Positions 6,062 to 52,572 are shown, counted from the stretch's first letter. The stretch is 64,000 bases of DNA from Thermoanaerobaculia bacterium (GCA_963719225.1 CAVRAY010000001.1:2400001-2464000), one strand, 5' to 3'. Numbers and translations: made by a program. The notes: generated from the sequence alone by a model not told the origin.

Positions 6062-6580
6062 TCAGGGATTCATGCGCCTCACGGTCTTCACGTCGGCGAA
6101 CCGCTCCGCGACGTGCGGGTCGTAGGGGCGCGCCGCGGAGGCATCGCGGACCCCCCGGTACTCGGTGTTGCATCGATAACAGATGACGATCGGCGCGACG
6201 CGCCGCGCGAGAACGAGATCGACCGCCGCCACGGCCAGCAGCACCGGCACGAACCAGATCCCGCCGAAGCGCCATGACACGGCGAGGGCGACCGCCGCGC
6301 CCGCGGCGAGGATCGCGCAGCCGAGGCGCTGGTCGAAATCCTTCTGGGAGAAGAGAGCGGTGGAAGAACAGCGAGAGCAGACGTCCACCCTCTCTCCGCC
6401 TCGAACGGCGTGCGAGTGGGAAAAGGCGATAGAAGAATGCTTAGAAGGACAAGAGACGGAACCCATAGGCGCGTCGGGGGGCGCGGGCAGCTCGATGCGG
6501 GCGAAGCATTCCGAGCAATAAACGGACACGCGCACCTGGTGAGGATACGTGCGCCGCCCCACTGTGCCTCCCTCTCTCAT
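6062..6580 (-). CDS. Hypothetical membrane protein with several CxxC motifs
   Basis: CSEC, CSRC and CYRC motifs flank two hydrophobic segments. The start is uncertain. Confidence 0.7.
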   Translation of the reverse strand: MREGGTVGRRTYPHQVRVSVYCSECFARIELPAPPDAPMGSVSCPSKHSSIAFSHSHAVRGGERVDVCSRCSSTALFSQKDFDQRLGCAILAAGAAVALAVSWRFGGIWFVPVLLAVAAVDLVLARRVAPIVICYRCNTEYRGVRDASAARPYDPHVAERFADVKTVRRMNP

Positions 6581-6635
6581 TCACCTTCTAAGAAAATCTT
6601 CTCTTCGATCCCCTCCCTTCTTCTCTTTCTAAGAA
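6438..6635. repeat. TTCTAAGNA motif cluster: left site 6438 (TGCTTAGAA), right sites 6586 and 6627 (TTCTAAGAA)
   Basis: Read directly. Spacings are 148, 189 and 41 bp; the right sites lie in a polypyrimidine tract. Confidence 0.85.
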
Positions 6636-6686
6636 GATCTTCTTTTCTTTCTTCTCCTTCTCTCTGTCTCTTACCATGCGCAGCTC

Positions 6687-7874
6687 ATGGCCATCCGCCC
6701 GATAGACCGCCGCGCCCTCGGCTGGCTCGCCGCCGCCCACGTCGTCAACGACATGAACCAGGGCGCCGTGCCGGCGCTGCTGCCGTTTCTCATCGCCGAG
6801 CGCGGCCTGACGTACGCGGCGGCGGGAGGTGTGGTCCTCGCGGCGACTCTGCTGTCGTCGCTCGTCCAGCCCGTGCTCGGCCACCTCTCCGACCGGCGGC
6901 CGCTGCCCTTCCTCATGCCGCTCGCGGTCCTTGCCGCGGGCTGCGGCCTCGCGCTCGCGGGCGCCGTGACGGGCTACGGCGCGACGATCGCCGCGATCCT
7001 TCTCTCGGGCGCGGGCGTTGCCGCCTTCCATCCCGAGAGCGCGCGCTACGCGAACTACGCCTCGGGCGAGCGTCGGGCCACCGGAATGAGCGTCTTTTCC
7101 GTGGGTGGCAATCTCGGAATCGCGCTCGGGCCGGTCGCGATCGCTCTTCTCGCGGGGTCGGGAGGCGTCGCGCGCATCGTCTGGATGGCTGTTCCGGCGG
7201 GCATCATGGCGGCGCTCCTCGCGCGTGAGCTGCCGCGCCTGCGCGTCCTGCGACCCGAAACCTCGCGCTCGCGCGCCCGCGACGACGCGGCGGCCCCGCG
7301 ATGGGGAGCCTTCACCCGGCTCTCCGTCGTGATCGCGGTTCGCTCGCTCTTCGCCTTCGGGCTCGTTTCGTTCGTCCCTCTCTATCTCGTGAAGGTCCGC
7401 GGGATTCCAAAAGAACGGGCCGCTCTCGCCGTGACCGCGATGCTTCTCGCCGGCGCCGTCGCGACGCTGGCGGGAGGCCGCCTCGCGGACCGCTTTGGGC
7501 GCCGCGCGGTCCTCGTCGGCGCGCTCTTGCCGCTGGCTCCGCTCCTCGCCCTTTTTCTCCGTGCCCCGGGGATTGCCGGTCTCGCGATTCTCGTGCTCAT
7601 CGGCGCAGGCACCGTGGCGACGTACAGCGTGGCCGTCGTGATGGGACAGGAGTACCTGCCGGGCCGCGAAGGCATCGCCGGGGGCGTCACGATGGGGCTC
7701 GCGATCGGCGTCGGAGGCGCGGGAGTTCCGCTTCTCGGAGCGCTCGCCGATCATCAGGGCGTCGCTTCGGTCTTCCCCGTTCTGGCGGCCCTGCCCCTCG
7801 TCGCCGCGGCGCTCTCGCTCACGCTCCCGGGGCCGCAGCCTGCGCTCAAACGGGAAGTCCCGAACGCCGCGTGA
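6687..7874 (+). CDS. MFS transporter, Fsr (fosmidomycin resistance)-like
   Basis: HVVNDMNQG, VQPVLGHLSDR, AAFHPE and GGRLADRFGRR motifs with a 12-TM pattern. Confidence 0.88.
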   Translation: MAIRPIDRRALGWLAAAHVVNDMNQGAVPALLPFLIAERGLTYAAAGGVVLAATLLSSLVQPVLGHLSDRRPLPFLMPLAVLAAGCGLALAGAVTGYGATIAAILLSGAGVAAFHPESARYANYASGERRATGMSVFSVGGNLGIALGPVAIALLAGSGGVARIVWMAVPAGIMAALLARELPRLRVLRPETSRSRARDDAAAPRWGAFTRLSVVIAVRSLFAFGLVSFVPLYLVKVRGIPKERAALAVTAMLLAGAVATLAGGRLADRFGRRAVLVGALLPLAPLLALFLRAPGIAGLAILVLIGAGTVATYSVAVVMGQEYLPGREGIAGGVTMGLAIGVGGAGVPLLGALADHQGVASVFPVLAALPLVAAALSLTLPGPQPALKREVPNAA

Positions 7875-8730
7875 GGTACGCGGCGAGGAGCTCGCCGACG
7901 AGGACGAACACGAGCCCCACGTAGAGGAGGCCCGTCGCCGCCTGATTCGACTTCATGCGCGCGGTCCTCACGACGAAAGGCGCGAGGACGAGCGGCGCGA
8001 GGAGTCCCCAGGTCACGCGCGACCAGAAGAAGAAACCGTCCCGCATGGGGTCGACCAGGCTCGCGAAGGCTTCGTTCGCCGGGCCTGCGTGAAGGCGCGC
8101 GGCCCAGCCGAGCGCGAGGAGCGCGAAGGCCACCCGCGCGAGCACCAGGAGAGCGAAGACCTCGGTTGCGCGCACGAGGAGGCCGAACGGCAACGACGTC
8201 GAGACGAGGTACCAGTGTCCGAGGTTCATGGCCCAGACGACGGCGCCGAAGAGCAGCGCGCCGAGGAGAAGCCCGGTGGCGAGCCACACGGGCCCGAGGC
8301 CGGGGAGGGAAACGAACGGCTCCACCCACACGCGCGAGAGCAGAAGGGCGAGGGACGAGAGAACGGAGACGAAGAGAAGATTCTTAGAAAGGGTAAGAGA
8401 GCGGGCGGAACGCAGGCGCGCGCAAAGCGTCGCCGCGCCAGCGGTCAGAACGGCCGCGAGGAGAAGGGATCTCGGCGCGAGCATCATCGAAAGCGCGCCG
8501 CCGTCTCGCGCTGCGCCGCCCGCGGCAGCGGCGCCGGCCTCACTCCCCCTTCTAAGAAGAAAACCACCTCTACCCGAAACGAGCCATGACAGGGAGAGGC
8601 ACGCCGTGACGATTCCGCCGTGCAAAGCGAAGAATCCCCCCGAGAGATCCTTCGAGGACGACAGAAGGGTGCATGCGGCCAGCCCCGCCGCGAGCTGCAG
8701 CAGCACCAGCGCGAGGACGTCGGCGACCAC
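7846..8730 (-). CDS. Hypothetical multi-pass membrane protein
   Basis: About 8 TM segments with AMNLGHWYLV and KSNQAATGLLY motifs. GTG start at 8730 chosen because TACACT lies 6 nt upstream. Confidence 0.75.
   Translation of the reverse strand: MVADVLALVLLQLAAGLAACTLLSSSKDLSGGFFALHGGIVTACLSLSWLVSGRGGFLLRRGSEAGAAAAGGAARDGGALSMMLAPRSLLLAAVLTAGAATLCARLRSARSLTLSKNLLFVSVLSSLALLLSRVWVEPFVSLPGLGPVWLATGLLLGALLFGAVVWAMNLGHWYLVSTSLPFGLLVRATEVFALLVLARVAFALLALGWAARLHAGPANEAFASLVDPMRDGFFFWSRVTWGLLAPLVLAPFVVRTARMKSNQAATGLLYVGLVFVLVGELLAAYLTRRSGLPV
8381..8558. repeat. Inverted motif pair TTCTTAGAA (8381) / TTCTAAGAA (8550), 169 bp apart
   Basis: Read directly; both sites are inside the CDS. Confidence 0.85.
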
Positions 8731-8767
8731 GCGCGCAGTGTAGCGGCTGTTGCGGTGGAGCGAATCG

Positions 8768-19169: not shown

Positions 19170-19688
19170 CTAGTCCAGGAGGCCTTCCGGCGGGTCGAGG
19201 ACGATGCGCCGCTTCGCGACGTCGACGGAAACCACGATCGGACGGGAGAACGGGACGTCGCGCGCGCCGCGCGCCGTCTCGAGGACGAGGAGGGACCGCC
19301 CCCCGACGTCAGCAAGCTCCGTGACCCGCCCGAGCACGGTACCCGCCGCGTCGACGGCGAGCGCGCCCTCGATCTCCCAGTGGTAGACGTACCCCTCGGG
19401 TCGGGGAGCGACGTCCCGCGCGCTCACGCTCAGATCCGCGTTCCGAAGCGTCTCGGCCATCGAAACGTCCGAGATTCCTTCGAAGGTGAGGAGCACACGG
19501 CCTTGATGGGGGCGCACCGCCGCGATGCGCACCTCTCGCTCCTCGTGCGCACCGCCGGAGAGGCGGACTCTCAACCCTTCTGAGAATCTCTCCGGAAAAT
19601 CCGTCAACACTTCGACGACGACCTCTCCCTTGAGGCCGTGCGGCTTCACGACTTGACCAATGACGACGCGATCTTCCGGCGCGGTCAT
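19170..19688 (-). CDS. rimM: Ribosome maturation factor RimM
   Basis: IGQVVKPHGLKGEV; located between rpsP and trmD. Confidence 0.93.
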   Translation of the reverse strand: MTAPEDRVVIGQVVKPHGLKGEVVVEVLTDFPERFSEGLRVRLSGGAHEEREVRIAAVRPHQGRVLLTFEGISDVSMAETLRNADLSVSARDVAPRPEGYVYHWEIEGALAVDAAGTVLGRVTELADVGGRSLLVLETARGARDVPFSRPIVVSVDVAKRRIVLDPPEGLLD

Positions 19689-22675: not shown

Positions 22676-23662
22676 CTGCGTACTCTCCTCGTCGACCTCG
22701 GCAACGTCCTCGTCCGGTTCGATCACGACGTGACGCTCCGGCGAATCGAGGCGGCCACCGGCGTGCCTTCCGCGGCCCTGCGTCCGCACCTCTTCGGGCC
22801 GATCGAGCACGAATTCGATCTCGGACGGATGCCGGCGGCGGCCTTCTTTCGCGCGGCCGAGCGTGCCGCGGGGATTCCCCGGCTCGACGACGACCTCTGG
22901 ATTCCGGCCTGGCGCGATATTTTCACGGTCGTTCCCGCGGCTCTCTCCGCGCTACGCCAACTCGAGCCTGACGTCGTGCCCATTCTCGTCTCCAACACGA
23001 ATGCTCTTCACTGGGAAGGTGTGCTGCTCGTCGCTCCGGAGCTGCCTCGCCTCGTCCCCCTTCGGGCACTTTCCTTCGAGGTCGGCGCCGCGAAGCCCGA
23101 TCCCGCGCACTTTCACGCCGCCCTCGCGCGCGCCGGAGCGCGGTCCGAAGACGCTCTCTACGCCGACGACCGGCCCGACCTCGTCGAGGCGGCGCGGGGC
23201 CTCGGCATCGACGGATTCGTCGTGGCCGATCCCGAGCTGTTCGCGGACGAGCTTCGCGACCGCGGCTTCCTCGCGCCGTCACCCGCGCACCTGCCCTCGC
23301 CGCCGGCGCACTTCGGGGGCGCCTCCTCACCGCACTTCGTGAAAGGCGTCACGGAGTTCCGGGCGGCGCGTTTCTTCGAGGCTCACGAAGAATGGGAACG
23401 GCTCTGGAAGGAAAGCAAAGGCGACGACAAGGTCTTTCTGCAGGCGCTCATCCAGCTCGCCGCGGCGTGCGTCCACATCGGGCGTGGCAACGCCGCGCCG
23501 GCGAAACGCCTTCTGGAGCTCGCGAAGGCGAAGCTGGATCGGTTCGGGAAGGAAGAGGGGGAAATAAACCTTGGATTTCTTAGAAAGGAAATCGGATCGG
23601 CCCTCGCGGAGGCTCCTGAGGCCCTTCTACGGGTCGATTTGCGCAGCTGGTTTCCAATGTGA
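22676..23662 (+). CDS. HAD-family hydrolase fused to a C-terminal DUF309-like domain (probable CTG start)
   Basis: HAD motif I (LLVDLGNVL) lies upstream of the listed GTG; SNTN, KPDP and DDR motifs; C-terminal FFEAHEEWE..W..LQALIQLAAA. Confidence 0.8.
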   Translation: MRTLLVDLGNVLVRFDHDVTLRRIEAATGVPSAALRPHLFGPIEHEFDLGRMPAAAFFRAAERAAGIPRLDDDLWIPAWRDIFTVVPAALSALRQLEPDVVPILVSNTNALHWEGVLLVAPELPRLVPLRALSFEVGAAKPDPAHFHAALARAGARSEDALYADDRPDLVEAARGLGIDGFVVADPELFADELRDRGFLAPSPAHLPSPPAHFGGASSPHFVKGVTEFRAARFFEAHEEWERLWKESKGDDKVFLQALIQLAAACVHIGRGNAAPAKRLLELAKAKLDRFGKEEGEINLGFLRKEIGSALAEAPEALLRVDLRSWFPM

Positions 23663-23724
23663 CGGCGCGCGCGGCGCCCCTGTTCCCCTCCAAGAAATCT
23701 CTTTCTCTCTCTTCTTCCTAAGCA
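23577..23724. repeat. Inverted motif pair TTCTTAGAA (23577) / TCCTAAGCA (23716), 139 bp apart
   Basis: Read directly; the right site has one mismatch and lies in a pyrimidine tract. Confidence 0.75.
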
Positions 23725-25052
23725 AAATCTCCTTCTTTTTCCGGCACCCTCGGCAAGACGCCAGCCGCGCGCGCGGCGACTTCCGAGAGGAGCGTTCCGT
23801 CCGGCATGCGGCTCGCCGCGCCGTGCATTCCGCGCTGGCCGACGCCGAGGCGCGCGAGCGCTTCGCCGACGCGCCCGGAAATGCCGCGCGGGCGCGACCA
23901 GCCCGCAGCGGCTTCTTCGAGGACCACCCGGTAGGCCTCGGCAATGCGCTCGGGCCGCCGGGGCACGCCCCAGACCGACGCGGCGCGTCCCCTCTCAGGG
24001 GCGAGATCCGGCTCGAACGCGAGCCGCTCCATGGTCTGCGCGAGACGCGCGACCTCGTCGCCGCCGACCGGGATCTTGTCGGCAAACGCGTCTGGCAGCT
24101 CGCGGAACCAGCCCGTGTCCGACACGACGAGCGGCAGTCCGAAGCCGGCGAGACGGCACACGGCGTGGGAGGTCTCTCCCATCGTAGGATGGCGCAGGTT
24201 CACGGCGAAGGTCGCGGCGGAGGCCGCGCGCCAGAGGTCCACCTCGGACAGATAGCCGCCGAACCTCACGTCCTCCTGGAGGCCGCTCTCACGCACGGTG
24301 GATCGGAGGGCGTCGTCGTCCGCCACGGCTCCGCCGATGAAGAAGAAGGGCCGGCGCCCGGGCGGAAGCGTCGCGAGCGCCTCGAGGATCTTCGCGATGC
24401 GCTTGGCGGGCGACACGATCCCGAGCGTGATCCCGGCCGGCCGGTCCCGCGGGAAGCCGAGGGCCTCGCGCGCCTCGAGGATTGGCGTCCGCGGGGCGGG
24501 CGCGACGTGCTGCGGGATCGTGAGGGCGCGGGTGCCTGGGCACTCCGCGAGAACCGCGCCGGTCACGAGCTTCGAATGCGAGACGACCGCTTCGGCGGCA
24601 CGGATCACTCCCGCGGACATCGGATAGCGCCACGGGTCGAGGTCCCAGACCGGGACGCAGGAGCCATCCCTGAGCGTCGCGGCAAACGCCATCCCGCGCA
24701 CGCCATGCGCCCGTTCCAGCTCGCGGACGTAGTCGCCGGACCGTGAGCGCGTGAGGTACGCCGCCGCGAAGAGATGGTGGAGGACGAACTCGTGGAGAAC
24801 CACGACCGCCGGAGTCCGGCGTTCCGGATCGAAGAGCGCCTCGACGGACGGCGCGTGAAGCGGATCGTTGCCGATCTGGACGAGGAGCACGTCGTGGTTC
24901 GCCTTCAGCGCGGCGGCCGCGTTCGCGGGTTCGTACGAAGAGACCGAAAGAGAGGGATTCTTAGAAAGTGAAGAGAGGATCTCTGCGTCGTAGTCCGCGA
25001 TGCCGGAGCGCGTGGGTGGGAGAGGGCCGATGAAACCTACCGAGAGGGGCAT
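23718..25052 (-). CDS. Glycosyltransferase family 4
   Basis: PLPPTRSGIADY, NLRHPTMGETS and VVSDTGWFREL. Confidence 0.88.
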   Translation of the reverse strand: MPLSVGFIGPLPPTRSGIADYDAEILSSLSKNPSLSVSSYEPANAAAALKANHDVLLVQIGNDPLHAPSVEALFDPERRTPAVVVLHEFVLHHLFAAAYLTRSRSGDYVRELERAHGVRGMAFAATLRDGSCVPVWDLDPWRYPMSAGVIRAAEAVVSHSKLVTGAVLAECPGTRALTIPQHVAPAPRTPILEAREALGFPRDRPAGITLGIVSPAKRIAKILEALATLPPGRRPFFFIGGAVADDDALRSTVRESGLQEDVRFGGYLSEVDLWRAASAATFAVNLRHPTMGETSHAVCRLAGFGLPLVVSDTGWFRELPDAFADKIPVGGDEVARLAQTMERLAFEPDLAPERGRAASVWGVPRRPERIAEAYRVVLEEAAAGWSRPRGISGRVGEALARLGVGQRGMHGAASRMPDGTLLSEVAARAAGVLPRVPEKEGDFA

Positions 25053-25103
25053 TTATCGAATTCCGCCCGCATCGAGCAGCGCCCGCACGGCATTTTCCCA
25101 GGA
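24958..25103. repeat. Motif TTCTTAGAA (24958) with a degenerate partner TTCCCAGGA (25095), 137 bp apart
   Basis: Left site is exact. The right site has two core mismatches but keeps the GATCCCTCTT flank. Confidence 0.5.
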
Positions 25104-26090
25104 GATCCCTCTTACCCTTTCAAAGCCTCTTTCTCCGAATTCCCTCGATTTCTGCGCGTCCGCAAGAAGAGCTGTTGCCGACTCGGCGAGGGCTTCCGCG
25201 CTCGGCGCGACGACGCGGCCGTTCTCCCTGTCGACGACGAACTCCAGCGGCCCGCCCGAGTCCGTGCACGTCACGACGGGCTTCTTCGACAGGAACGCCT
25301 CGAGCGCGATGTAGCCATAGTCCTCGTCGGCCGGCGGAAAGATCACGACACCGCAGGTCGCGTAGAGACCGAGGAGCTCGTCGTCGGACACGCGCCCGGC
25401 GAAGCGAATTTCGGCGCCGCTCTTTCCGGCAAGAGCTTCCAACCTGGCGCGGTCGGCGCCGTCACCCGCGATGACGAGCCGGAATCTCCCGGCTGCGGCC
25501 GCCGCGATCGCGAGATCCACCCGCTTCCACGCGTCGAGCCGGCCGGCCACGAGCGCAAATCCTCTCGAGACCTCGCACCGATAGCGTCCCGCGAGCGGCG
25601 GCGGATGATAGAGAGCCTCCGCCTCGATCCCGTTGAACCGCGCGAGCCGGTCCGCGGTGTTCTTCGCGTTCGTGAAGATCTTGCGCGCTTCCGAGAGGCC
25701 CGTGCGATCCGCTTCGGCGATCAGCTCGCGCCAGCGCGAGTCCTCGGGCGAGGCGGTGAAATCGCTCTGGGAGGTGCCGAAGCGGTCGTAGGCCTGGCGG
25801 AACTGATGGATCAGCCAGACGACCTTGTTCTCGTGCCTCACGAGGTAGGACGGGAACTTCATGGGGATGACGAGATCGACGCGCTTGCCGTCCGCTTCCG
25901 AAACGTCGAGAAGCCTCCACGCGAGCGCCGAGGTCAGAATCTCCGCGCGCGGGTACCACTTGAACGGAAGGCGCACGAGGTCGGCCTCGTGACCGGAGGC
26001 GGCGATCTCGCGCACGAGCCCCTCGGCGTGACGTTCGGCGCCGCCGGAGGAGAACGGCACCTGCGCCGTGCAGACGAGGACGCGCGCCAT
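25053..26090 (-). CDS. Glycosyltransferase family 4
   Basis: PFSSGGAE, GRLDAWKRVD and EDYGYIALEAF. Confidence 0.9.
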   Translation of the reverse strand: MARVLVCTAQVPFSSGGAERHAEGLVREIAASGHEADLVRLPFKWYPRAEILTSALAWRLLDVSEADGKRVDLVIPMKFPSYLVRHENKVVWLIHQFRQAYDRFGTSQSDFTASPEDSRWRELIAEADRTGLSEARKIFTNAKNTADRLARFNGIEAEALYHPPPLAGRYRCEVSRGFALVAGRLDAWKRVDLAIAAAAAGRFRLVIAGDGADRARLEALAGKSGAEIRFAGRVSDDELLGLYATCGVVIFPPADEDYGYIALEAFLSKKPVVTCTDSGGPLEFVVDRENGRVVAPSAEALAESATALLADAQKSREFGERGFERVRGISWENAVRALLDAGGIR

Positions 26091-26098: not shown

Positions 26099-27445
26099 CT
26101 ACTTCACGCCCGTGACGGCGTAATCCTGCGGGGCGAAAAGAAGGCGCGCGAGCGGTGCGAACCGTGGGTCGTCGGCGAGACCCCTGGGCAGCCCCTCCGA
26201 CTCCGGAACGGGAGAGCGGAAGCCCACTTCGACGTCCCGGAACCCGGACGCCGTCAGGAGCCGTGCGAGCGAAGGCGCGGGGACCGGCCTCACGTGCGTG
26301 AGGTCCATCCAGAACCAGCGCATCGCATAGACGGACTCGGGATTGATCGTCTCGAAAAGCACGCGGCCGGTCGGCGCGAGCTTCCGGAGGGCGAGCTCCA
26401 CGAGGTCGAAGAGGGACGCGGCCGGAAGGTGCTCGACGACCTGGAAGGCCGTCACGCCCCCGAGTGAGGAGTCCGCGCGGGCAGCGAGCCACGTGAAGAG
26501 GTCGGCTTGATCCACCGCGAGCTTCTTCTCTTTCGCGCGCGCGGCCATCACGGGGTTCGCGTCGCAGCCGATCGCGGCGACTCCCTCGGCGGTCAGAGCC
26601 TCGAGGAACTCTCCGCGCCCGCAGCCGAGGTCGGCGACGGGCCCGGGCGCGCCGCGAAAACGGGCGGCGTCGCTCGCCTGGCGGGCACGAATCTCCTCTT
26701 CGCTTCCCCGGAAATGCTCCTCGAAGTCGGCGTAGAGACCCGCGCGCAGGGGGTCGTCGGCACGCACCGCGGAATCCGCAGCCTGCCCACGCGCGACGGG
26801 TGAGGGCCGGGCTTCGGAGAGGTTCTGCAAATTGCTTCGAAGGGAGGACCAATCGAGGCGCAGCATCCGGAGGCCTTCGTTCGCCTCTTCGACCTTTCCA
26901 AGAATCCCCCGGGTTTCCTCCGCCGACCGTTCCCTCTCCCGCGCGAGCGCCTCGAAGCGCTGGTCGCGGTCCTTTTCGAGCGCGTCCAGCCGGCGCTGGC
27001 TCGCTCGGAGCTCCTCGCCCGCGCTCTCGCGTGCTTCGCTCTCGCGCGCGAGCCGCGCGTTGAAGCCTTCGTCGCTCTCCGTGATCTGCCGCAGGACGGC
27101 CTCCGTCTCGAGAAGCGCGCCGCGGAGGGATTCGAGGAGCGCGGAGTTGAATGTCGTCTGGTCCCGCGTGACGATCCTGAGGACGCGCAGCAGCGCGGCC
27201 TTGAGCGGCCGCAGAGAGGCGCCGGCCGGCAGCACGGGGGCGACGAAGCGTCCCGCGTTTTCCAGCATCGTTCGCGGCCCCGTGTACGCGGGGACGCCCG
27301 GCGAGGGGGCGGACCGTTGGGCCGGCGCGTTCGTCGGCGCGAGACCCGAGCCGGAGAAAGCCGCGAGCGACGTGATCTGCTCCGCAAGCTCGGCGGCCAG
27401 GGCCGCGACGTCGCGTTTCGCCGCGTCCTCGGGCTTTCCGCTCAT
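26099..27445 (-). CDS. Class I SAM-dependent methyltransferase with coiled-coil N-terminus (surface-glycan locus)
   Basis: FEEHFRGS, DLGCGRGEFL, FQVVEHL, ETINP and DLTHVRP. Confidence 0.88.
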   Translation of the reverse strand: MSGKPEDAAKRDVAALAAELAEQITSLAAFSGSGLAPTNAPAQRSAPSPGVPAYTGPRTMLENAGRFVAPVLPAGASLRPLKAALLRVLRIVTRDQTTFNSALLESLRGALLETEAVLRQITESDEGFNARLARESEARESAGEELRASQRRLDALEKDRDQRFEALARERERSAEETRGILGKVEEANEGLRMLRLDWSSLRSNLQNLSEARPSPVARGQAADSAVRADDPLRAGLYADFEEHFRGSEEEIRARQASDAARFRGAPGPVADLGCGRGEFLEALTAEGVAAIGCDANPVMAARAKEKKLAVDQADLFTWLAARADSSLGGVTAFQVVEHLPAASLFDLVELALRKLAPTGRVLFETINPESVYAMRWFWMDLTHVRPVPAPSLARLLTASGFRDVEVGFRSPVPESEGLPRGLADDPRFAPLARLLFAPQDYAVTGVK

Positions 27446-38275: not shown

Positions 38276-41080
38276 TCAGGGGGCGAGCCGCTCCCTCACC
38301 TTCGCGACGCCCAGCGCGAGGGCCGGCTCGATCTGGGCCGCGTCCTTGCCGCCCGCCTGCGCGAGATCGGGCTTTCCGCCGCCCTTTCCCCCGACCGCCG
38401 GCGCCATGACCTGCGCCAGCTCGTTGGCGGAGACCCGGGCCACGAGGTCGGACGTCACGGCTGCGAGCAGCGTGACCTTGCCTTCCAGCTCGGTTCCGAG
38501 GAGGACGACGCCGGACTTCAGCTTGCTTCGGAACGTGTCGGCGAGATTACGCAGCTCGTTCGTCGGGAGCGACGGCACGCGGCGGGCGAGGACCTTCACT
38601 CCCGCAATCTCCTCGATGCCATCGTTGTCGCGGCCGGAGACGTCCGAAGAGGACGAAGAGGAAGACTTCTTAGAAGGTGAATGTCCAGAGGCAGAGGCGC
38701 CCGGCTGCCCGCCCGAGGCGACCATCGCGCCTGCGCTCACCCCCGCGCCGCCGCCCGCCAGCGCGAGATCGCGCTTGAGAGCGGCAATCTCTTTTTCTCT
38801 CCTTCTAAGCAAATCGACCATTTCCCTGAGCTTCGAGGGCAGCACGTCGAGCGGTGTGTTCACGATCTGCGAGATCTGAGAAAGGATGTCTTCGTCCCTC
38901 TGGAGCCTTTCGACCGCGTTCAGCGACGTGACCGCCTCGAGGCGGCGGACGCCCGCAGCGAGGCCCTTGTCCGAAAGGACCTTGAAGGCGCCGATTTCGC
39001 CCGTGCGCCCGACGTGACAGCCGGCGCAGAGCTCCGTCGAGAAGCCCGGCACGTCGACCACGCGAACGCGCTCGCCGTACTTCTCGCCGAAGAACATCAT
39101 GGCGCCTTTCTTCTTCGCGTCGTCCATCGACATGACGGCCTTTGACACCTCGCGGTCGCGCAGGATTTCCTCGTTTACGAGGCGCTCGATCTCGCGGATC
39201 TCCTCGGCGGTCGTCGGGCGCGAGGCCGCGTAGTCGAAGCGCAGGCGGTCCGGCGAGACGAGCGAGCCCATCTGGCGAACGCTCTCCCCGAGGACCTTCC
39301 GCAGCGCGGCATGCAGGAGGTGCGTCCCCGTATGGTTCGCCTGGGTCTTGCGGCGCGTCCACTCGGGAACACCCATAGAAACCAACTGCCCGGGGGCCAG
39401 GGCACCAGAAGAAATTCTTAGAAGGTGAAGAATGGCGCGGCCATTGGGCGCGCGGCGCGTGTCGAGGACCGTCGCGGCGCCCGCCTCGCCGCCGGTTCCC
39501 TTCCAGAGGAATTCCCCCTGGTCGGCGACCTGGCCGCCGCCCTCGGGATAGAAGACGGTGCGTTCCATGACGACCCACCCCTGCTGACCAGCGGTGAGGC
39601 GTTCGCCACGTTCGAAGAGACCCTGCTTAGAAGGTGTAAAGAGACCGAGGACTCGCCCGCCTTCCAGGCTCACGAAATCCTGCTCGGGATACCCGCGGAA
39701 TTCGGTCGTCCACGACGGATCGATCTGGTCGTCCGGCGGCAGACCGCCCTCCCCTTCGAACTTCGACGCGCCCTTGCTCCGCTCGCGGGCCGTGGCGAGC
39801 TCCTTTTCGAAGCCCGCAACGTCCAGCTTGACGCCTTCATCAGAAGAAATCTCTTCGATCGTCTCCAGCGGAACACCATACGTGTCATAGAGGCGGAAGG
39901 CAGCCTCGCCCGAAAGAAGCGCCTCGCCGCGACGCCGCATTTCCGAGATCGCCTCGCCGACGCGGTCGACGCCGACAGACATCGTCTTCGCAAAGCGCGC
40001 CTCTTCTTCTTCGATCAACCCGAAGATCGCCTTTGCGCCGGGATTCTCTTCACCTTCAAAGAAAATCTCCAATGACTCCGTTACCCCGGGGACGAGCCTG
40101 AAGAGGAACGTATCGACGATGCCCAGCCGGCGCCCGTACCGGACTGCACGCCGAATGATCTTTCGCAGAACGTATCCGCGGCCTTCATTCGAAGGAATGA
40201 CTCCGTCCGCGATGAGCATCGTCGCGGCGCGGGCGTGATCGGCGACGACCCGGAACGGCGCGTCTTCGACCGCCATCCCTCCGACGTACTTCCGGCCTGA
40301 GATTGCCTCGATCTTCGCGATGATTCGCGCGAACAGGTCCGTGTCGTAGTTGTTGTTCTTTCCCTCGAGGATCGCGGTGATGCGCTCGAGGCCGGCGCCC
40401 GTGTCGACGCTCGGCTTCGGGAGCGGGGTCATCTTCCCGGAGGCGTCGCGGTCGAACTGCATGAAGACGAGATTCCAGATCTCCATGACGCGATCGCCTG
40501 CGCCGTTCGGCGTCGCGTCGCCGGGCACTCCGTCGCCCTGGTCGTAGTGGATCTCGCTGCACGGGCCGCAGGGACCCGTATCGCCCATCGACCAGAAGTT
40601 GTCCTTCTCGCCGAAGCGGGCGATGCGTTCTTTCGGGAGGTACTTCCCCCACAGCGCGGCCGCCTCGTCGTCGTCCGTGAAGACCGTCGCCCACAGGCGC
40701 GAGGGGTGGAGCCCGTAGCGTCCCGTGACGAGCTCCCACGCGTAGTCGACCGCCTCCTCCTTGAAGTAATCGCCGAAGGAGAAATTGCCGAGCATCTCGA
40801 AGAAAGTGTGGTGCCGCGCCGTGTATCCCACGTTGTCGAGGTCGTTGTGCTTGCCGCCCGCGCGCACGCACTTCTGCGAGGAGGTCGCCCGCACGTAGCC
40901 GCGCTTCTCCCGCCCGAGGAAGAGGTCCTTGAACTGGTTCATCCCCGCGTTCGTGAAGAGCAGGGTCGGATCCTCGGCCGGCACGAGCGAGGAGGACGCC
41001 ACGCGCGTGTGCCCCTTCTCCTCGAAGAAGGACAGGAACGTCTCGCGGACCTTGCGGGAGGTCCAGCCGGAGGCCGCCAT
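38276..41080 (-). CDS. alaS: Alanine--tRNA ligase
   Basis: FTNAGMNQFK, HHTFFEMLGNFSFGDYFK, NHTGTHLLH and GGKGGG. Confidence 0.97.
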   Translation of the reverse strand: MAASGWTSRKVRETFLSFFEEKGHTRVASSSLVPAEDPTLLFTNAGMNQFKDLFLGREKRGYVRATSSQKCVRAGGKHNDLDNVGYTARHHTFFEMLGNFSFGDYFKEEAVDYAWELVTGRYGLHPSRLWATVFTDDDEAAALWGKYLPKERIARFGEKDNFWSMGDTGPCGPCSEIHYDQGDGVPGDATPNGAGDRVMEIWNLVFMQFDRDASGKMTPLPKPSVDTGAGLERITAILEGKNNNYDTDLFARIIAKIEAISGRKYVGGMAVEDAPFRVVADHARAATMLIADGVIPSNEGRGYVLRKIIRRAVRYGRRLGIVDTFLFRLVPGVTESLEIFFEGEENPGAKAIFGLIEEEEARFAKTMSVGVDRVGEAISEMRRRGEALLSGEAAFRLYDTYGVPLETIEEISSDEGVKLDVAGFEKELATARERSKGASKFEGEGGLPPDDQIDPSWTTEFRGYPEQDFVSLEGGRVLGLFTPSKQGLFERGERLTAGQQGWVVMERTVFYPEGGGQVADQGEFLWKGTGGEAGAATVLDTRRAPNGRAILHLLRISSGALAPGQLVSMGVPEWTRRKTQANHTGTHLLHAALRKVLGESVRQMGSLVSPDRLRFDYAASRPTTAEEIREIERLVNEEILRDREVSKAVMSMDDAKKKGAMMFFGEKYGERVRVVDVPGFSTELCAGCHVGRTGEIGAFKVLSDKGLAAGVRRLEAVTSLNAVERLQRDEDILSQISQIVNTPLDVLPSKLREMVDLLRRREKEIAALKRDLALAGGGAGVSAGAMVASGGQPGASASGHSPSKKSSSSSSSDVSGRDNDGIEEIAGVKVLARRVPSLPTNELRNLADTFRSKLKSGVVLLGTELEGKVTLLAAVTSDLVARVSANELAQVMAPAVGGKGGGKPDLAQAGGKDAAQIEPALALGVAKVRERLAP
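38667..38811. repeat. Inverted motif pair TTCTTAGAA (38667) / TTCTAAGCA (38803), 136 bp apart
   Basis: Read directly; inside alaS. Confidence 0.85.
39415..39632. repeat. Direct motif pair TTCTTAGAA (39415) / TGCTTAGAA (39624), 209 bp apart
   Basis: Read directly; both are followed by GGTG and lie inside alaS. Confidence 0.8.
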
Positions 41081-43053: not shown

Positions 43054-45415
43054 AGAGAAGAAGCTGGAGAAAGAAAAGACTTCTATGAAGGTGCCCGACG
43101 CGACGGGGACCGAGACGGTCGTCGAAATAGGCCTCGCTGGCCATACCCTTTCCAAGAGAATCCTTCTTCCTCCCGGCGATCCCGTTCCGTACGACAAGGT
43201 CGACCGTCCGCTGACCGGCAAGCGCCGCCCGCGCCTCGACGGCCCCCAGAAGGTGACCGGCCGGGCCACCTACACGCACGACGTCAGCCGGCCCGGAATG
43301 CTCTACGGGCGCGTCGTGCGGTCTCCCCACGCACACGCCGACATCGTGTCGATCGACACCTCGAAGCTCGACGCGATGGGCGTGGTCTGGGTCAAACCGG
43401 ACAAGAAGAAGGTTCGATACCACGGTGAGGCGGTGCTCGCGCTCGCAGCGGCGACGCCCCAGCTCGCCGACGACGCGCTTCACGCCGTGGCCGTGAAATA
43501 CGACGTGAAGCCGCACACGGTGAGGCTCGTCGACGCGATGAAAGACGGTGCCCCGCTCGTCTTCGAGAAGCCCGTCGAGGAGAAGCGCTCCGCCGGCGAC
43601 GCGCCCGCGGCAGGCGGGGCGGTGGCCCAGCACGGCAATGTGCGCGGCCCGAAGACCTCCGGGAAGGGCGACGTCGCGAAGGGCTTCGCGGAAGCCGACG
43701 CCACGCTCGAGCTGACGATGACGACCGCCGTGCAAACGCACGTCCCCATGGAGACGCACTCGCTCTTCGCCGAATGGGAAGGCGACAACCTGAAGGTGTA
43801 CGCCTCCACTCAGGGCACGTTCACCGTCAAGGACGAGCTCGCGACCGTCCTCGGAATCCCGAAGGACAAGGTCGAAGTCGTGACGGAGTACGTCGGAGGG
43901 GGCTTCGGCGCGAAGTTCGGGGCCGGCGACTACGGCGTCTTCGCGGCGCAGCTCGCGAAGAAGGCCGGCAAGCCGGTGAAGCTGGTCCTCGACCGGAAAG
44001 AAGAGCACCTCGCCGCGGGGAACCGGCCGGACTCCATCAACACGATCAAGGTCGGATACAAGAAGGACGGGACCGTGACGGCCGTCCAGTACACGTCCGT
44101 GGGGACCGCCGGCGTCGCCACCGGGACGGGAACAGGCTCCTTCGCGAAGAACGCGTACGGCTTCGAGAACGTCAAGGTCGACGAGTCTGACGTCTTCACG
44201 CACCTCGGCCCCGGATGTGCGATGCGCGCCCCCGGGCACCCGCAGGGAGCGTTCACCGTGGAGGCCGCCCTCGACGCGGTCGCCGAGGCGTGCGGGCTCG
44301 ACCCGCTCGCCGTGCGCTTCAAGAACGATCCTTCCGAGATCCGCCGCGCGGAATGGGAAGCGGCGGCGAAGGCCATCGGCTGGTCGCGCCGCGACGCGAT
44401 CACACGGGCGAACAAGGCCGCGGCGGCCGCCGGCCTTCCTCTCCGGCGCGGGCTCGGATGCGCCGCTGCCGTCTGGTACAACATCGTCAACAAGGGCTCG
44501 CAGGTCCAGGTCCGGATCCACAAGGACGGCGCCGTCGAGGTCGAAAACGGCGTCCAGGAGATCGGCTGCGGCATCCGCACGGCGATCGGACTCGTGACCG
44601 CGGAGGAGCTGGGCCTCCCCGTCGAGGCCGTGAGCGTTCACATCGGCAACTCGAAGTATCCCTACGGGCCCGCCTCCGGTGGGTCGACGACGACGGCCTC
44701 CCTCATCCCCGCCGTCCGCGCGGCGGCTTTCCACGCGGCGCGGAAGATGGCCGAGATCGCCGCTCCGCTCCTCGGGGCGAAGCCGGAAGACGTCAAGCTC
44801 GAGGGCGGCGCGTTCCTCGCGAACGGAAAGCGCGCCGACTGGGCGAAGGTCTGCTCGCGGATGAGCGGAGAGTCGATCCTCGCGACCGGCGACCGCGCTC
44901 CCGACTACGACGGGGCCGATCCGCGCCTCCTGGGCGCGCAGTTCGCCGACGTCGTCGTGGACGTCGAGACGGGCGTCGTGAAGGTCGAGAAGGTCGCCGC
45001 CGCGCACACATGCGGCCTTCCCGTGTGGAGGACGGGCGTCGAGAGCCAGATCCGGGGCGGCGTGCTGCAGGGCGTCAGCTACGCGCTCTTCGAGGAGCGC
45101 GTCATCGACCTTCCGACGGGCCGCTTCCTGAACCCGAACATCGAGCAGTACAAGATCCTCGGCGCCAAGGACGTCCCCGAGGTCGTGACCATCGTCCTCG
45201 ACCTCTTCGCCGGCAAGAACAACGCGCACGTGAGAGGCATCGGCGAGCCCGCCACCGTCCCGACCGCCGCGGCGATCGCAAACGCCGTCTCCCACGCGCT
45301 CGGCAGCCGCGTCACGGACCTGCCCATCACGCCGGCGCGCATCCTGGCCGCCGCACCCACCATCGTCAATCCGCTCCGCGCCGAAAGGCCGGCGGGAGCC
45401 GAGGTGAAATCATGA
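43046..45415 (+). CDS. Xanthine dehydrogenase family molybdopterin-binding subunit
   Basis: KVTGRATY, VGGGFGAK, AMRAPG, GGSTT and GIGEP. Confidence 0.92.
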   Translation: MAEEKKLEKEKTSMKVPDATGTETVVEIGLAGHTLSKRILLPPGDPVPYDKVDRPLTGKRRPRLDGPQKVTGRATYTHDVSRPGMLYGRVVRSPHAHADIVSIDTSKLDAMGVVWVKPDKKKVRYHGEAVLALAAATPQLADDALHAVAVKYDVKPHTVRLVDAMKDGAPLVFEKPVEEKRSAGDAPAAGGAVAQHGNVRGPKTSGKGDVAKGFAEADATLELTMTTAVQTHVPMETHSLFAEWEGDNLKVYASTQGTFTVKDELATVLGIPKDKVEVVTEYVGGGFGAKFGAGDYGVFAAQLAKKAGKPVKLVLDRKEEHLAAGNRPDSINTIKVGYKKDGTVTAVQYTSVGTAGVATGTGTGSFAKNAYGFENVKVDESDVFTHLGPGCAMRAPGHPQGAFTVEAALDAVAEACGLDPLAVRFKNDPSEIRRAEWEAAAKAIGWSRRDAITRANKAAAAAGLPLRRGLGCAAAVWYNIVNKGSQVQVRIHKDGAVEVENGVQEIGCGIRTAIGLVTAEELGLPVEAVSVHIGNSKYPYGPASGGSTTTASLIPAVRAAAFHAARKMAEIAAPLLGAKPEDVKLEGGAFLANGKRADWAKVCSRMSGESILATGDRAPDYDGADPRLLGAQFADVVVDVETGVVKVEKVAAAHTCGLPVWRTGVESQIRGGVLQGVSYALFEERVIDLPTGRFLNPNIEQYKILGAKDVPEVVTIVLDLFAGKNNAHVRGIGEPATVPTAAAIANAVSHALGSRVTDLPITPARILAAAPTIVNPLRAERPAGAEVKS

Positions 45416-46686: not shown

Positions 46687-47307
46687 CTGTTCGTCTCCGG
46701 AGTTCTTCTCGCGGCAGGTGCCTCCACGCGCTTCGGATCTTCGAAGATGCTCGCGCCGGTCGGAGAAGAAAAAACACCTTTGCTTCGCAGGGTGCTGGAG
46801 ACATGGCTCGCATCCGGGTTCGACGAGGTGATCGTCGTTCTGGGAAGGGATGCCGCTGACATTCGAGCCAGGCTCGAAGAGAACCTGCTTAGAAGGGTCA
46901 ATGGGGAAGAATCAGCCGCAGCGCCTGTCCGCTTCGTCGAGAACCCGAAGTGGGAGGCTGGGATGTTTTCTTCTGTGAAAGCGGGGCTCGCCGCGACGTC
47001 CGCCCACTCGACGCACATCGCCATCTCCCCCGCCGATCTTCCCTTTCTAAGCAAAGGTACTCTTCGGACCGTGATCGGTGCAGCAGCCTCCGCCGACGAG
47101 CGCACGGTCGTCGTTCCGACCTTCGGCCGCCGCCGCGGGCATCCGCTCGTGATTCCCGCGTCCCTTCGGGCGCGTCTGCTCTCCTGGCCCGACACCGCCC
47201 GCTTGAATCTTCTCTTCGAGGAAAAAGATCTCTCGGTCCTCCATCTCGAAGGCTTCGATGAAAGCATCCTTCATGACGTCGACACGCCGGGCGATCTCTC
47301 CCGATGA
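46687..47307 (+). CDS. Molybdenum cofactor cytidylyltransferase-like nucleotidyltransferase (MocA family); start non-canonical or uncertain
   Basis: GVLLAAGASTRFGSSK lies upstream of the first ATG; GMFSS, ADLP, GHP and DVDTPGD. Confidence 0.82.
   Translation: MFVSGVLLAAGASTRFGSSKMLAPVGEEKTPLLRRVLETWLASGFDEVIVVLGRDAADIRARLEENLLRRVNGEESAAAPVRFVENPKWEAGMFSSVKAGLAATSAHSTHIAISPADLPFLSKGTLRTVIGAAASADERTVVVPTFGRRRGHPLVIPASLRARLLSWPDTARLNLLFEEKDLSVLHLEGFDESILHDVDTPGDLSR
46886..47053. repeat. Inverted motif pair TGCTTAGAA (46886) / TTCTAAGCA (47045), 159 bp apart
   Basis: Read directly; inside the mocA-like gene. Confidence 0.85.
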
Positions 47308-49591: not shown

Positions 49592-49643
49592 TCGCCGCGG
49601 CGGAGATACGATTCTCCTGGATCCCGGGGCGAAGGAGGCACGC

Positions 49644-49904
49644 GTGACGAAGAGACGCCGCAGGAAGACCCGGACGGCCGCGCGACTCAACAAGAAGCAC
49701 ACGGTCAAGGCCCACTTCAACGTCCCGCAGCTCACGAAGGCGGGCTCGTCTCTCTCCCTCGAGGTCTACGCCGACGAACAGAAGATCGGCGAGGTCACGA
49801 TCGGGCGCGGTTCGCTCTTCTGGCGCGGGGGCCGCCGGCATCTCCTGAAGAAGATCTCCTGGACCCGATTCGCCGAAAAGATGGACGAGCTCGCGTACGG
49901 CTGA
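49644..49904 (+). CDS. Small basic hypothetical protein (86 aa)
   Basis: AAGGAGG SD with GTG start; typical codon usage. Confidence 0.75.
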   Translation: MTKRRRRKTRTAARLNKKHTVKAHFNVPQLTKAGSSLSLEVYADEQKIGEVTIGRGSLFWRGGRRHLLKKISWTRFAEKMDELAYG

Positions 49905-49922
49905 GCGCGGATCTGCGAAGCG

Positions 49923-50870: not shown

Positions 50871-50933
50871 GAAGCCCTCCGCGTCGATCTCGAGGAATCC
50901 TAACCGAAACGAAGCGTGTGACCGGAAACGGTT

Positions 50934-51734
50934 TCAAGCGGAATCGACCAACTTCGCAAGCGCCACGACCACGGCGGTCTCGAGGCGGAGAATGCGGGGG
51001 CCGAGAGAGAAGAAAAGAGCACGGTTTTCTTCGAATAACGAGATTTCGGCCGGAGCGAACCCACCCTCGGGACCGATGGCGACAAGGGAGGGCTGGGAAA
51101 ACGCCTGGGCGCCGCCCAGAGGCGCCGCTGGATCCAACACGACGAGCCTTTCCCCTCTTACCTCTCCAAGAAACTCTTCGGTGCTCTTCGGACCTTCCAC
51201 TCCCGGCACGATCGTCCGGTCGCACTGCTTCGTCGCTTCGACGGCGATCCGGCGCAGGCGCTCGAGGCGGGCGGGCGACGAGAGCGCCGTCACGTGCGAC
51301 TTCTGCGACCGTTCGCACGCGAGGAGGACGAAACCCGCCGCTCCGCATTCCGTGCCCTTCTCGATCGCCCATTCGACGCGCGCGGGCTCGGCGCACGCGA
51401 GGGCGACGGTCACGCGGTTCGCGGGCTCGCCGGGGAGAGAAGGGGAAGAAGAAGAGGAAGAGGAGGAAGAAGAGAAGATCTTCTTAGAAGGTAATAGGGC
51501 GATCGCGGCGCCTCCCCTCGCGAGAACGGCCCTGACACGTGCGCCCTTTCCGTCGAGCGCGATGACCTCGTCGCCGTCGCGCAGGCGCCTCGAGCGAACG
51601 TGTTCTCTCTCTTCCCTTCTAAGTAGAATCTCTTTCTTCCGGTCTTCGTGCTCTTCGAACGTCGCCATCTGCTCCGCCAGATCGGGCACGTAGACCCGTG
51701 GCGGCCGCGCGGGGGCGGGGGCGTTCTCACTCAT
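50934..51734 (-). CDS. rsmE: 16S rRNA (uracil1498-N3)-methyltransferase
   Basis: EKGTECG, EATKQC, IGPEGGF and LGPRILRLETA; contains a poly-Ser insert. Confidence 0.9.
   Translation of the reverse strand: MSENAPAPARPPRVYVPDLAEQMATFEEHEDRKKEILLRREEREHVRSRRLRDGDEVIALDGKGARVRAVLARGGAAIALLPSKKIFSSSSSSSSSSPSLPGEPANRVTVALACAEPARVEWAIEKGTECGAAGFVLLACERSQKSHVTALSSPARLERLRRIAVEATKQCDRTIVPGVEGPKSTEEFLGEVRGERLVVLDPAAPLGGAQAFSQPSLVAIGPEGGFAPAEISLFEENRALFFSLGPRILRLETAVVVALAKLVDSA
51027..51172. repeat. Degenerate inverted motif pair TTCTTCGAA (51027) / CTCCAAGAA (51164), 137 bp apart
   Basis: Both sites are imperfect, with the same purine-left/pyrimidine-right flanks. Confidence 0.5.
51481..51625. repeat. 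Inverted motif pair TTCTTAGAA (51481) / TTCTAAGTA (51617), 136 bp apart
   Basis: Read directly; the left site is preceded by a polypurine tract of about 45 nt. Confidence 0.85.
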
Positions 51735-52572
51735 TCGAAGAAGCCCACGCTGTCCCGAGCCATTCGTTCTCCTGAATGGATCGGACCAGCCGAAAGCCTT
51801 CCTTCCGAAGCAGAATCTCCCACTCCCCTTCCCTCTCCACGAGCTGTCCGGAACAGAGAAGCCTCCCGCCCGGCGCGAGATGCCCGCGGAGCACCGCAAG
51901 GAGCGGAGCCGTCTCCTCGTGGATCATGTTCGCCACGACGAAGTCGAACCGGGCTTCGTCTCGGATCGCCTCGAGGGGACCGGCGAACGCCTCGACGCGC
52001 GGAATCCCGTTCGCGCGGGCCTGCTCGCGCGTCGCGAAGGCGGCGAGTGGGTCGACGTCGAACGCCACGACCCGGCGCGCCCCTTCGAGCGTGGCGACGA
52101 ACGCGAGCGTCCCGGTGCCGCAGCCCACGTCGAGGACCCGCGCGCCGCGCAGGTTCTCCGCGAGGAGGAGACGCACGGCGATGCGCGTGGACTCGTGCGA
52201 GCCGGTCCCGAAGGCGCGGACCGCGGGAAGGAAGAGCCGACGAACGCCGGGAGGCGCCGCAGTTGCGAGAGGACCGTCGTGTGGGTCGAAGAGAAATTTC
52301 TCGACGAGCACGGCCTTCCTCAAGGCAGCCGACTCGGCGACCCAATCGGTGGATTCTTCTTCGAAGGTGGAAAGACCGCGAGCGCCGAGCGCCTCGAGTG
52401 CGGAAAGCGCAGCCGCGACGTCCCACGTTCGGACCCAGAGAAAGAGTTTGCCATCCACGTCGGCCGCAGACGAAAACTCCAGCCCCCCTAACCCTTCTAA
52501 GAAATCCCCATGGTTCTCTTCGAATCTGGCGGCCAGCTTCGCGGGGACTTCAATGCGAACCGCAGTTGTCAT
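51727..52572 (-). CDS. prmA: Ribosomal protein L11 methyltransferase
   Basis: AFGTGSHEST, VLDVGCGTG and VVAN; located between dnaJ and rsmE. Confidence 0.88.
   Translation of the reverse strand: MTTAVRIEVPAKLAARFEENHGDFLEGLGGLEFSSAADVDGKLFLWVRTWDVAAALSALEALGARGLSTFEEESTDWVAESAALRKAVLVEKFLFDPHDGPLATAAPPGVRRLFLPAVRAFGTGSHESTRIAVRLLLAENLRGARVLDVGCGTGTLAFVATLEGARRVVAFDVDPLAAFATREQARANGIPRVEAFAGPLEAIRDEARFDFVVANMIHEETAPLLAVLRGHLAPGGRLLCSGQLVEREGEWEILLRKEGFRLVRSIQENEWLGTAWASSNE
52357..52503. repeat. Inverted motif pair TTCTTCGAA (52357) / TTCTAAGAA (52495), 138 bp apart
   Basis: Right site is exact; the left site has one mismatch and keeps the GGTG flank. Confidence 0.7.

Follow-up and report, generated by a model that had tools for sequence, protein, structure and literature searches.

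A genus-wide, one-directional DNA motif arranged in facing pairs in Thermoanaerobaculia, with a possible link to short-patch exchange between species

An oriented motif of ~45 bp recurs as inverted, facing pairs in a 64,000-nucleotide stretch of the genome of a Thermoanaerobaculia bacterium (GCA_963719225.1, CAVRAY010000001.1:2400001-2464000; below, "the window" means this whole stretch), and the same arrangement was found genome-wide and throughout the genus. Partners lie 68 to 250 bp apart with a fixed polarity, a sharp lower limit to their spacing and no helical phase; the motif is conserved as DNA and rewrites the proteins of its host genes, and in the zones around it the divergence between species is uncoupled from their distance elsewhere. 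We see an even chance that this genus-specific, one-directional signal serves recombination or DNA transfer. It is a real genus-wide cis-element, and its link to the exchange of patches between species is testable. The window corresponds to G000:C1:2400001-2464000 in a 4.75-Mb genome (G000) of 68% GC in two contigs, C1 and C2, which is 97% complete with a reported contamination of 6.2%. The genus, which comprises uncultured soil and freshwater Acidobacteria, was represented here by metagenome assemblies alone.

The element consists of a purine tract, a TTTCTTAGAAGG-type core and a purine tail; in its position weight matrix (PWM), ~20 purine-rich bases precede W-T-T-K-C-T-T-(A/C)-G-A-A-R-G and ~10 purine-rich bases follow. 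The preliminary description of the window had placed the motif at the right positions but had taken it to be shorter than its ~45 bp. Exact copies in the window comprise nine of TNCTTAGAA and seven of TTCTAAGNA. With a site defined by a PWM score of at least 16 bits, 840 sites were counted genome-wide, one per 5.6 kb, versus 0 in a fifth-order Markov simulation (1.5 Mb, scaled). Removal of 46 near-duplicates (kinase paralogues, insertion sequence copies and a duplicated part of C2) left 794. The C2 duplication, a long inverted copy within one contig (~40-220 kb versus 610-760 kb, 76-82% identity), probably reflects chimerism with a related genome; the figures for C1 are therefore the reliable ones. 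A promoter or ribosome-binding role was rejected, as sites fall on both gene strands (118 versus 94 in genes) and mostly far from gene starts. No paper on such a motif was found among those listed in a literature search, from whose coverage subscription journals were mostly absent.

Within the genus, 29 of 29 genomes carry the motif in abundance, whereas in 297 other Acidobacteriota it is no commoner than chance. An 11-mer occurred in 65-354 copies in each of the 28 other genus genomes and in 0-5 copies in 32 genomes of other genera (family and order); a 12-mer occurred in 87-180 copies in four genus genomes and in 0-7 copies in 297 other genomes of the phylum. The outgroups for these and several later comparisons include G037, flagged as unpublished, and none of the conclusions depends on that genome by itself. 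At metagenome loci, sites were present in 21 of 21 with a close PrmA versus 1 of 49 with a distant one. In a scan of species genomes for the pair pattern, 80 of at least 117 matches were listed, and 78 of these came from Thermoanaerobaculia or from Acidobacteriota/Acidobacteria; the other 2, from Cytophagales, were AT-rich and without the purine tract. A Cytophagales genome has an AT-rich inverted repeat of its own (L032, L057) with the same core, spacings of 75 and 97 bp and homologous spacers, probably a small mobile element. Viral contigs gave 9 and 4 pair matches and at least 120 single matches; among the matches listed, nearly all were AT-rich, and the four GC-rich single matches each stood without a partner. 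No other motif dialect was seen in 62 kb from six sister genera, too little sequence for exclusion.

Sites were labeled L or R by orientation, so that L followed by R denotes a facing pair (LR) and the reverse a back-to-back pair (RL). The copies, the fixed polarity, the five exact pairs (136, 136, 148, 159 and 169 bp) and the same-orientation copies 41 and 209 bp apart given in the preliminary description were all recovered in the window, and its orientation bias extended to the whole genome. After near-duplicate removal, 268 neighbors lay 61-250 bp apart, for which local density predicts 31 of any kind; they comprised 218 LR, 25 RR, 19 LL and 6 RL, and in 2,000 label permutations LR averaged 67 and never exceeded 92. 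A facing partner lay within 300 bp of 535 of the 794 sites, and 19 of 112 seemingly lonely strong sites had a weak facing partner, versus 0-3 in three control directions. The polarity recurred in stretches of ten other genomes (LR 252, LL 14, RR 22, RL 1; orthologous and hence not independent) and at 21 metagenome loci (LR 45, LL 3). Spacers are unrelated to one another, as had been proposed, and are 68% GC; site clusters are spaced at random (coefficient of variation [CV], 1.1).

Pair numbers rise abruptly at a floor of 68 bp (3 pairs of 57-67 bp versus 42 of 68-78 bp), with the main mode at 68-90 bp, another near 137 bp and a tail that reaches 250 bp. The predicted histogram peak near 137 bp is thus real, but as the second mode: outside the window, 29 of 212 pairs fell at 131-143 bp, versus a mean of 14 in four neighboring bins (Poisson p 3e-4). 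The window itself is rich in second-mode pairs by happenstance. Among very short pairs (28-58 bp), 12 of 14 were noncoding and terminator-like. A spike at 93 bp, which came from a paralogous Ser/Thr kinase family, was removed from the spacing set; ~nine such genes, at G000:C1:2293328-2319611 and six other places, each carry a facing pair of exactly 93 bp encoding FLEGEE and SFEEIPSSSS. The proposal that partners sit at near-integral helical turns, on one face of the helix, did not survive. For 260 facing pairs, Rayleigh Z was 0.28 at 10.5 bp and at best 1.84 for periods of 10-11 bp (p 0.46); 41.2% of pairs fell within 2 bp of a multiple of 10.5 bp, versus 41.4% expected, and with a tolerance of 2.5 bp, 51% of all spacings match some such multiple anyway. 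The A/T content in front of sites likewise lacked a 10-11-bp period. Other periods (8-14 bp and, more widely, 8-70 bp) were tried and rejected, the best being 26-27 bp with a global p of 0.06-0.07. Pooling 166 spacings from four relatives gave Z of 5.3-5.8 at 10.75-11 bp; this signal was not accepted because the same loci were counted up to four times and the values in the own genome were 1.1 and 0.5. Two proposed partners were also superseded: L23577 has a 35-bit partner at 111 bp, nearer than 23716, and for L24958 the proposed 25095 scores 7 bits, with a 17-bit site at 161 bp instead. Across the genus, the pair at 38667/38803 was spaced at 70, 70, 70, 70, 76, 82, 82, 82, 109, 115, 115, 118, 127, 136 and 136 bp in the 15 genomes (of 17) with both sites retained, whereas three pairs in rsmE and prmA mostly kept 134-149 bp, with single cases at 206-226 bp; exact pairs across genomes had two peaks, 76 and 81 bp, which differ by half a turn. 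Spacings with a lower limit, a declining tail and no phase would be more in keeping with tracking along DNA, or with a minimal fragment length, than with looping or wrapping. The sites of the window are listed below, with a strand where one was assigned.

6416..6657: facing pair, L core 6438-6446 and R core 6586-6594 (148 bp), plus a second R core 6627-6635; 32, 48 and 52 bits; between a small minus-strand open reading frame (ORF) and an MFS transporter gene
8359..8580: facing pair, L 8381-8389 and R 8550-8558 (169 bp); 39 and 21 bits; within the membrane-protein ORF 7846-8730, minus strand
19454..19608: weak facing pair, L 19476-19484 and R 19578-19586 (102 bp); 19 and 12 bits; within rimM, 19170-19688, minus strand
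23555..23746: L 23577-23585 with R 23688-23696 (111 bp; overlooked in the preliminary description) and R 23716-23724 (139 bp); 33, 35 and 34 bits; where a HAD/DUF309 gene and a glycosyltransferase gene converge
24936..25149: L 24958-24966, best partner R 25119-25127 (161 bp)
26880..26926, minus strand: single R-oriented site, center 26900; 21 bits
30158..30204, minus strand: single R-oriented site, center 30178; 26 bits
38276..41080, minus strand: alaS (alanine-tRNA ligase), a host gene rewritten by several sites
38645..38833: facing pair in alaS, L 38667-38675 and R 38803-38811 (136 bp)
39393..40085: further alaS sites, L 39415-39423, L core 39624-39632 and R 40055-40063; mosaic among genus genomes
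43059..43180: facing pair, L 43081-43089 and R 43150-43158 (69 bp); at the start of a xanthine-dehydrogenase-family gene
46864..47245: facing pair, L 46886-46894 and R 47045-47053 (159 bp), plus a weak R centered at 47219; within the MocA-like nucleotidyltransferase ORF 46747-47307, plus strand
51005..51194: facing pair in rsmE, L 51027-51035 and R 51164-51172 (137 bp); position kept across the genus
51459..51647: facing pair in the 5' part of rsmE, L 51481-51489 and R 51617-51625 (136 bp); 136-146 bp in other genus genomes holding both sites
52335..52525: facing pair in the 5' part of prmA (51727-52572, minus strand), L 52357-52365 and R 52495-52503 (138 bp)

Much of the motif lies within genes. 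Using 4,151 genes called with a purpose-built dicodon model, 488 of 769 sites of at least 18 bits fell in coding sequence, which makes up 87% of the genome; the model ends genes early at sites, so the coding counts are lower bounds. Sites favor poorly conserved coding stretches with a variable protein context and keep rare codons there. The sites in alaS occupy orthologous places across the genus and alter the protein, introducing LRK, LLRI, LLRR and an inserted SPSKKSSSS linker, none of which was found in 12 order-level and 6 family-level AlaRS outgroups; the genus-specific linker is encoded by the site at 38667. One alaS site is an in-frame insertion (15-40 codons relative to outgroups), and 5 of the 6 site positions arose mainly by substitution. 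The peptide SPSKK is inflated, at 21 occurrences versus 0.3 expected. At four-fold degenerate silent positions of the core, A/T was kept at 34 of 40, 46 of 52, 30 of 42 and 42 of 50 positions in four relatives (71-88%), versus 28, 30, 10 and 11% far from sites in the same relatives; retention so far above background means that the constraint acts on DNA, which bears out the earlier supposition that the motif is recognized as DNA. Among mobile elements, five copies of an IS110-like element, a family assignment made by eye, carry one strong site ~70 bp from an end (G000:C1:1112873, 2198892, 2200878, 2206355 and 2209390), and nine copies of another insertion sequence each carry a weak site.

The DNA in front of sites is unusual as well. 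Over ~180 bp in front, four-fold A/T was 0.16-0.18, versus 0.10 behind and far away, and this rise persisted for lonely sites and after masking of very weak sites; it was absent from the same alaS codons in sister genera. Total A/T and CpG were nearly unchanged (CpG rho 1.34 versus 1.37), while codon-position-2 changes were 2-3 times, and gaps up to ~10 times, commoner in the zone. An excess of silent divergence spans ~-80 to +240 bp relative to the site, as in L318/L330 (four-fold divergence 0.22 in the zone versus 0.056 far from sites), L331/L330 (0.30 versus 0.14), G020/G001 (0.24 versus 0.14), G013/G001 (0.31 versus 0.20) and G021/G028 (0.30 versus 0.20); the two most distant within-clade pairs gave 0.29 versus 0.28. 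Across 12 between-species pairs (of 16), the zone stayed at 0.22-0.31 while divergence far from sites ran five-fold, from 0.056 to 0.28. Such flatness argues against a raised mutation rate, which would scale with distance. Between clades, zone and far divergence were about equal (0.29-0.42 versus 0.37-0.39; in another comparison, 0.42 versus 0.41). Equally variable protein regions far from sites showed no comparable effect (0.143, 0.213, 0.200 and 0.195, against far values of 0.140, 0.196, 0.198 and 0.195, with zones at 0.26-0.31).

Divergent alleles that resemble those of other species were seen at sites. Seven contigs, 96-99.9% identical, represent one population in which two patches, one of 207 and one of 294-354 bp, coincide with sites, both starting 117-138 bp behind an L. 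Each patch has two alleles, 77-80% identical (20-23% diverged), and each allele is nearer to another species (82-87%); the minority allele of the second patch, seen once, is 87% identical to another species and 77% to its own. A chimera is an unlikely source of the first patch, whose edges are identical in four contigs. In segment trees of alaS, species regroup with high support in the site-rich middle, and over codons 552-600 G013 and G001 are nearly identical. Of 77 discordant tracts, 39 lay no more than 250 bp from a site, versus 14.4 expected, in ten quartets that are not independent and reuse alaS many times; an eleventh, unresolved quartet gave 18 of 43 near sites versus 10.8 expected. 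In contigs of near relatives, 43095-43165 (by 75 other letters) and 40014-40125 are replaced, both at sites.

We infer that allele exchange causes the uncoupling of the zones and that the sites cause the exchange. A putative protein would recognize the individual sites and operate on the ~200 bp ahead of each, and species of the genus would trade short pair-centered patches much more frequently than other parts of their chromosomes. The forward tract of a site would carry its facing partner, so that facing sites carry each other and spread together, while for same-direction sites the benefit would run in a single direction and for back-to-back sites there would be none; such mutual carriage would give LR far above LL and RR, and these above RL, matching 218, 25/19 and 6. 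Drive of this kind could outrun weak selection and leave rare codons, A/T-rich silent sites, indels and odd peptides behind. Recognition might take place at uptake or inside the cell, for example if both ends of a short fragment were protected from an AddAB-like nuclease. We put forward a more specific version tentatively, at less than an even chance: a directional protein reads hundreds of facing pairs, and the surrounding 300-450 bp are cassettes that move between species at least 20% diverged. The pairs would then have spread by mutual hitchhiking, rewriting AlaRS, RsmE and Ser/Thr kinases, with the 68-bp floor equal to one footprint of this machine and the mode near 137 bp to two.

Several observations weigh against a recombination or transfer signal. 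No donor genome was found for either patch (best match, 87%), the same population also has diverged patches that are not at sites, and 3 of 4 within-population pairs showed no silent excess in the zone. Front-zone discordance between the main clades was clearly raised in only 1 of 3 quartets (0.227 versus 0.055; the others, 0.063 and 0.090), and G000 versus G007 had no silent excess (0.28 versus 0.27). The zone samples are small, with 64-2,138 silent sites from one terminus-proximal region of ~0.5 Mb, and there could be chimeras among the metagenome contigs. Genes for competence and AddAB occur widely and do not set the genus apart, and no genus-specific reader was found among the candidates examined. 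A rise in density towards the terminus, described below, is not predicted by an uptake signal and is left unexplained; exchange could also be a by-product of another function. Separately, in L324-L329 and L331, patches of 50-400 bp with 10-30% divergence lie outside site zones within one species, which suggests that short-patch exchange is general in the genus.

The terminus gradient favors a different explanation. Density falls from ~25 sites per 100 kb near the terminus, at the GC-skew maximum (C1, 2.10 Mb), to ~6-8 far away on both arms (3-4-fold; Spearman -0.73 for density versus distance from the terminus, 38 bins of 100 kb), in coding and noncoding DNA alike and with no such rise for control words; one end bin of the right arm, at 19 per 100 kb, breaks it. 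A hand count for G028, among the matches listed, weakly fits the same trend. The gene dnaA lies on C2 near the skew minimum, in a sparse region without a site cluster, and orientation is not tied to the replichore (L/R by arm, 175/175 and 168/155). The pairs could accordingly be loading or stopping sites for a sliding or translocating machine of chromosome maintenance, for instance two rings loaded in front of the sites and meeting between them, most needed in late-replicating DNA, with nicks or stalls leading to recombination as a by-product. The smooth gradient, the 68-bp floor with a second mode near twice that, the lack of phase and the strong conservation of the core would all suit such a machine, as would the geometry it shares with opposed yeast origin recognition complex (ORC) sites (PMC12440816). 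Neither MCM nor MatP nor a clustering of sites at dnaA was found, the clusters are spaced at random and the spacers are 68% GC; a break-making site should moreover be lost by conversion unless strongly selected, and a machine alone would leave the zone alleles from other lineages unexplained. On this balance a chromosome machine is the main rival, possible though less likely than a recombination or transfer signal.

Local hypermutation in front of sites, through deamination, methyl-CpG decay or error-prone repair, would match the front A/T rise, its absence at the same alaS positions in sister genera and the commoner position-2 changes and gaps. It is improbable given that silent divergence is not raised in distant pairs, that CpG is not depleted, that A and T both rise with no strand-specific change and that the patch alleles are nearer to other species than to each other. 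The looping or wrapping of ~140 bp between sites on the same helical face, which the preliminary description favored, could draw on the second mode and on the steady rsmE/prmA spacings. It is refuted at genome scale by the missing period, the main mode at 68-90 bp, the 70-136-bp range of the alaS pair and the peaks half a turn apart, and no histone (PF00808) was present in the 97%-complete genome; very little credence is left to it. Equally slight is the case for pairing as RNA or as a single-stranded hairpin (a terminator or processing stem) or as H-DNA: L precedes R on either strand and the shortest pairs are terminator-like, but true partners match each other no better in complementarity of their arms than shuffled pairs do (z -0.6 to 1.6), the flanks lack mirror or palindromic covariation, and most pairs lie inside essential reading frames with a translated spacer. 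That the pairs are ends of miniature mobile elements inserted in genes, to which the one in-frame alaS insertion and the IS110-like copies would point, is the least probable of all and largely refuted, as the spacers are mutually unrelated and align with native coding sequence of outgroups, most alaS positions arose by substitution and no Y1 transposase was found.

Among known systems, the element likely works most like DNA uptake sequences and uptake signal sequences (DUS/USS), with a new geometry, and is possibly a new kind. DUS/USS occur in hundreds of clade-specific copies, many of them coding and in poorly conserved places, with inflated peptides (PMC2817400); they are conserved and linked to conversion fragments averaging 1.1-1.7 kb, a single DUS suffices, and inverted DUS pairs lie at most 21 nt apart and act as terminators (PMC2397512). 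The motif resembles them in its clade restriction, its hundreds of copies, its permissive coding positions and its conservation at the DNA level, and also in an apparent association with recombination tracts, subject to the reservations above; competence genes (ComEC and two ComEA-like) are present, which is necessary and not distinctive. It differs in failing the single-site rule, with most sites partnered within 300 bp and mostly not as terminators, in a zone of only ~0.3-0.45 kb and in a lower density that rises towards the terminus. Chi (RecBCD/AddAB) is a polar, over-represented motif that protects DNA and promotes recombination, with leading-strand enrichment (PMC3384302); the motif is likewise polar and over-represented, in a genome with predicted AddAB-like genes, whereas it has no strand bias, spans ~45 bp and is locally paired. 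Architecture imparting sequences (AIMS) and FtsK orienting polar sequences (KOPS) rise in abundance towards the terminus (PMC5993296) and are octamers skewed to the leading strand (PMC5993296, PMC3384302); the motif shares the rise and a purine-rich strand but not the skew. Opposed yeast ORC sites show loading peaks at 70-90 bp, remain efficient at 300 bp and are indifferent to helical orientation (PMC12440816). They too are inverted asymmetric sites, a likeness of geometry only that offers an analogy for tracking, not kinship; they are eukaryotic, whereas the sites here lie in genes, with GC-rich spacers and no MCM found.

Other paired or terminus-biased elements fit less well. Repetitive extragenic palindromic (REP) doublets of the REPIN type are inverted at a preferred spacing and have RAYT as cognate transposase, and matS sites are terminus-biased, can lie in genes and are read by MatP. 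From REP/REPIN and miniature inverted-repeat transposable elements (MITEs) the motif differs in that no Y1 transposase (RAYT, PF01797) was found in its own genome and that its spacers are unrelated, native and no repeat family; from matS, in that no MatP (PF06303) was found in a family search and that it is asymmetric and spread over the whole chromosome; and from nucleosome-like or phased looping, in its want of a 10-11-bp period in spacing or A/T and of a histone.

The genome encodes ComEC, the two ComEA-like proteins, AddAB-like genes and SMC. A family search for MCM gave weak AAA matches only, and a list of P-loop proteins held nothing unusual by eye. One protein (L305:4283-4918; G000:C1:1007283-1007921) has two helix-hairpin-helix modules joined by a linker that a 55-bit site encodes. 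It was set aside as the genus-specific reader, being present in 23 of 24 genus genomes but with two-domain relatives (30-35% identity) in 5 of 16 others, and is a possible candidate DNA receptor. A putative DnaD-like protein, which has no Pfam match, was likewise rejected as the reader, as it occurs in 39 of 41 genomes.

Some further observations concern the surrounding sequence. The 3' end of 16S rRNA (L001 near 3043) has TCACC and TTCTAAG flanking the anti-Shine-Dalgarno core, which resemble the R strand of the motif; the likeness was judged chance because the variable core center and the strand symmetry fit RNA pairing badly. The words CTAGAAT and CTAGACT are over-represented genome-wide (85 versus 21 and 54 versus 11 expected) and rarer towards the terminus, and are likely true -10 promoter words separate from the motif. 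In the window, the FAD-binding subunit encoded in the xanthine-dehydrogenase-family cluster is divided between two ORFs that overlap, FAD_binding_5 and CO_deh_flav_C (45412-46423), perhaps through a frameshift or an assembly error, a HAD-like hydrolase is fused to a C-terminal DUF309 domain (22730-23662), and a FitA-like antitoxin and PIN toxin form a pair (60927-61549).

For these organisms, odd peptides such as SPSKKSSSS and FLEGEE are to be read as DNA signals in the proteome, not as protein motifs. Two families, Neisseriaceae and Pasteurellaceae, are described in PMC2397512 and PMC2817400 as having proteomes reshaped by uptake-type motifs. If the recombination or transfer reading is true, the element would add an independent third example, from environmental Acidobacteriota, that differs in its oriented pairs, minimum spacing, short tracts and terminus gradient. 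It would permit a direct test of molecular drive versus selection, with 29 genomes and population data already public, and would provide a route for short-patch exchange between species ~20% diverged at those patches. It would also point to an undescribed DNA-reading protein.

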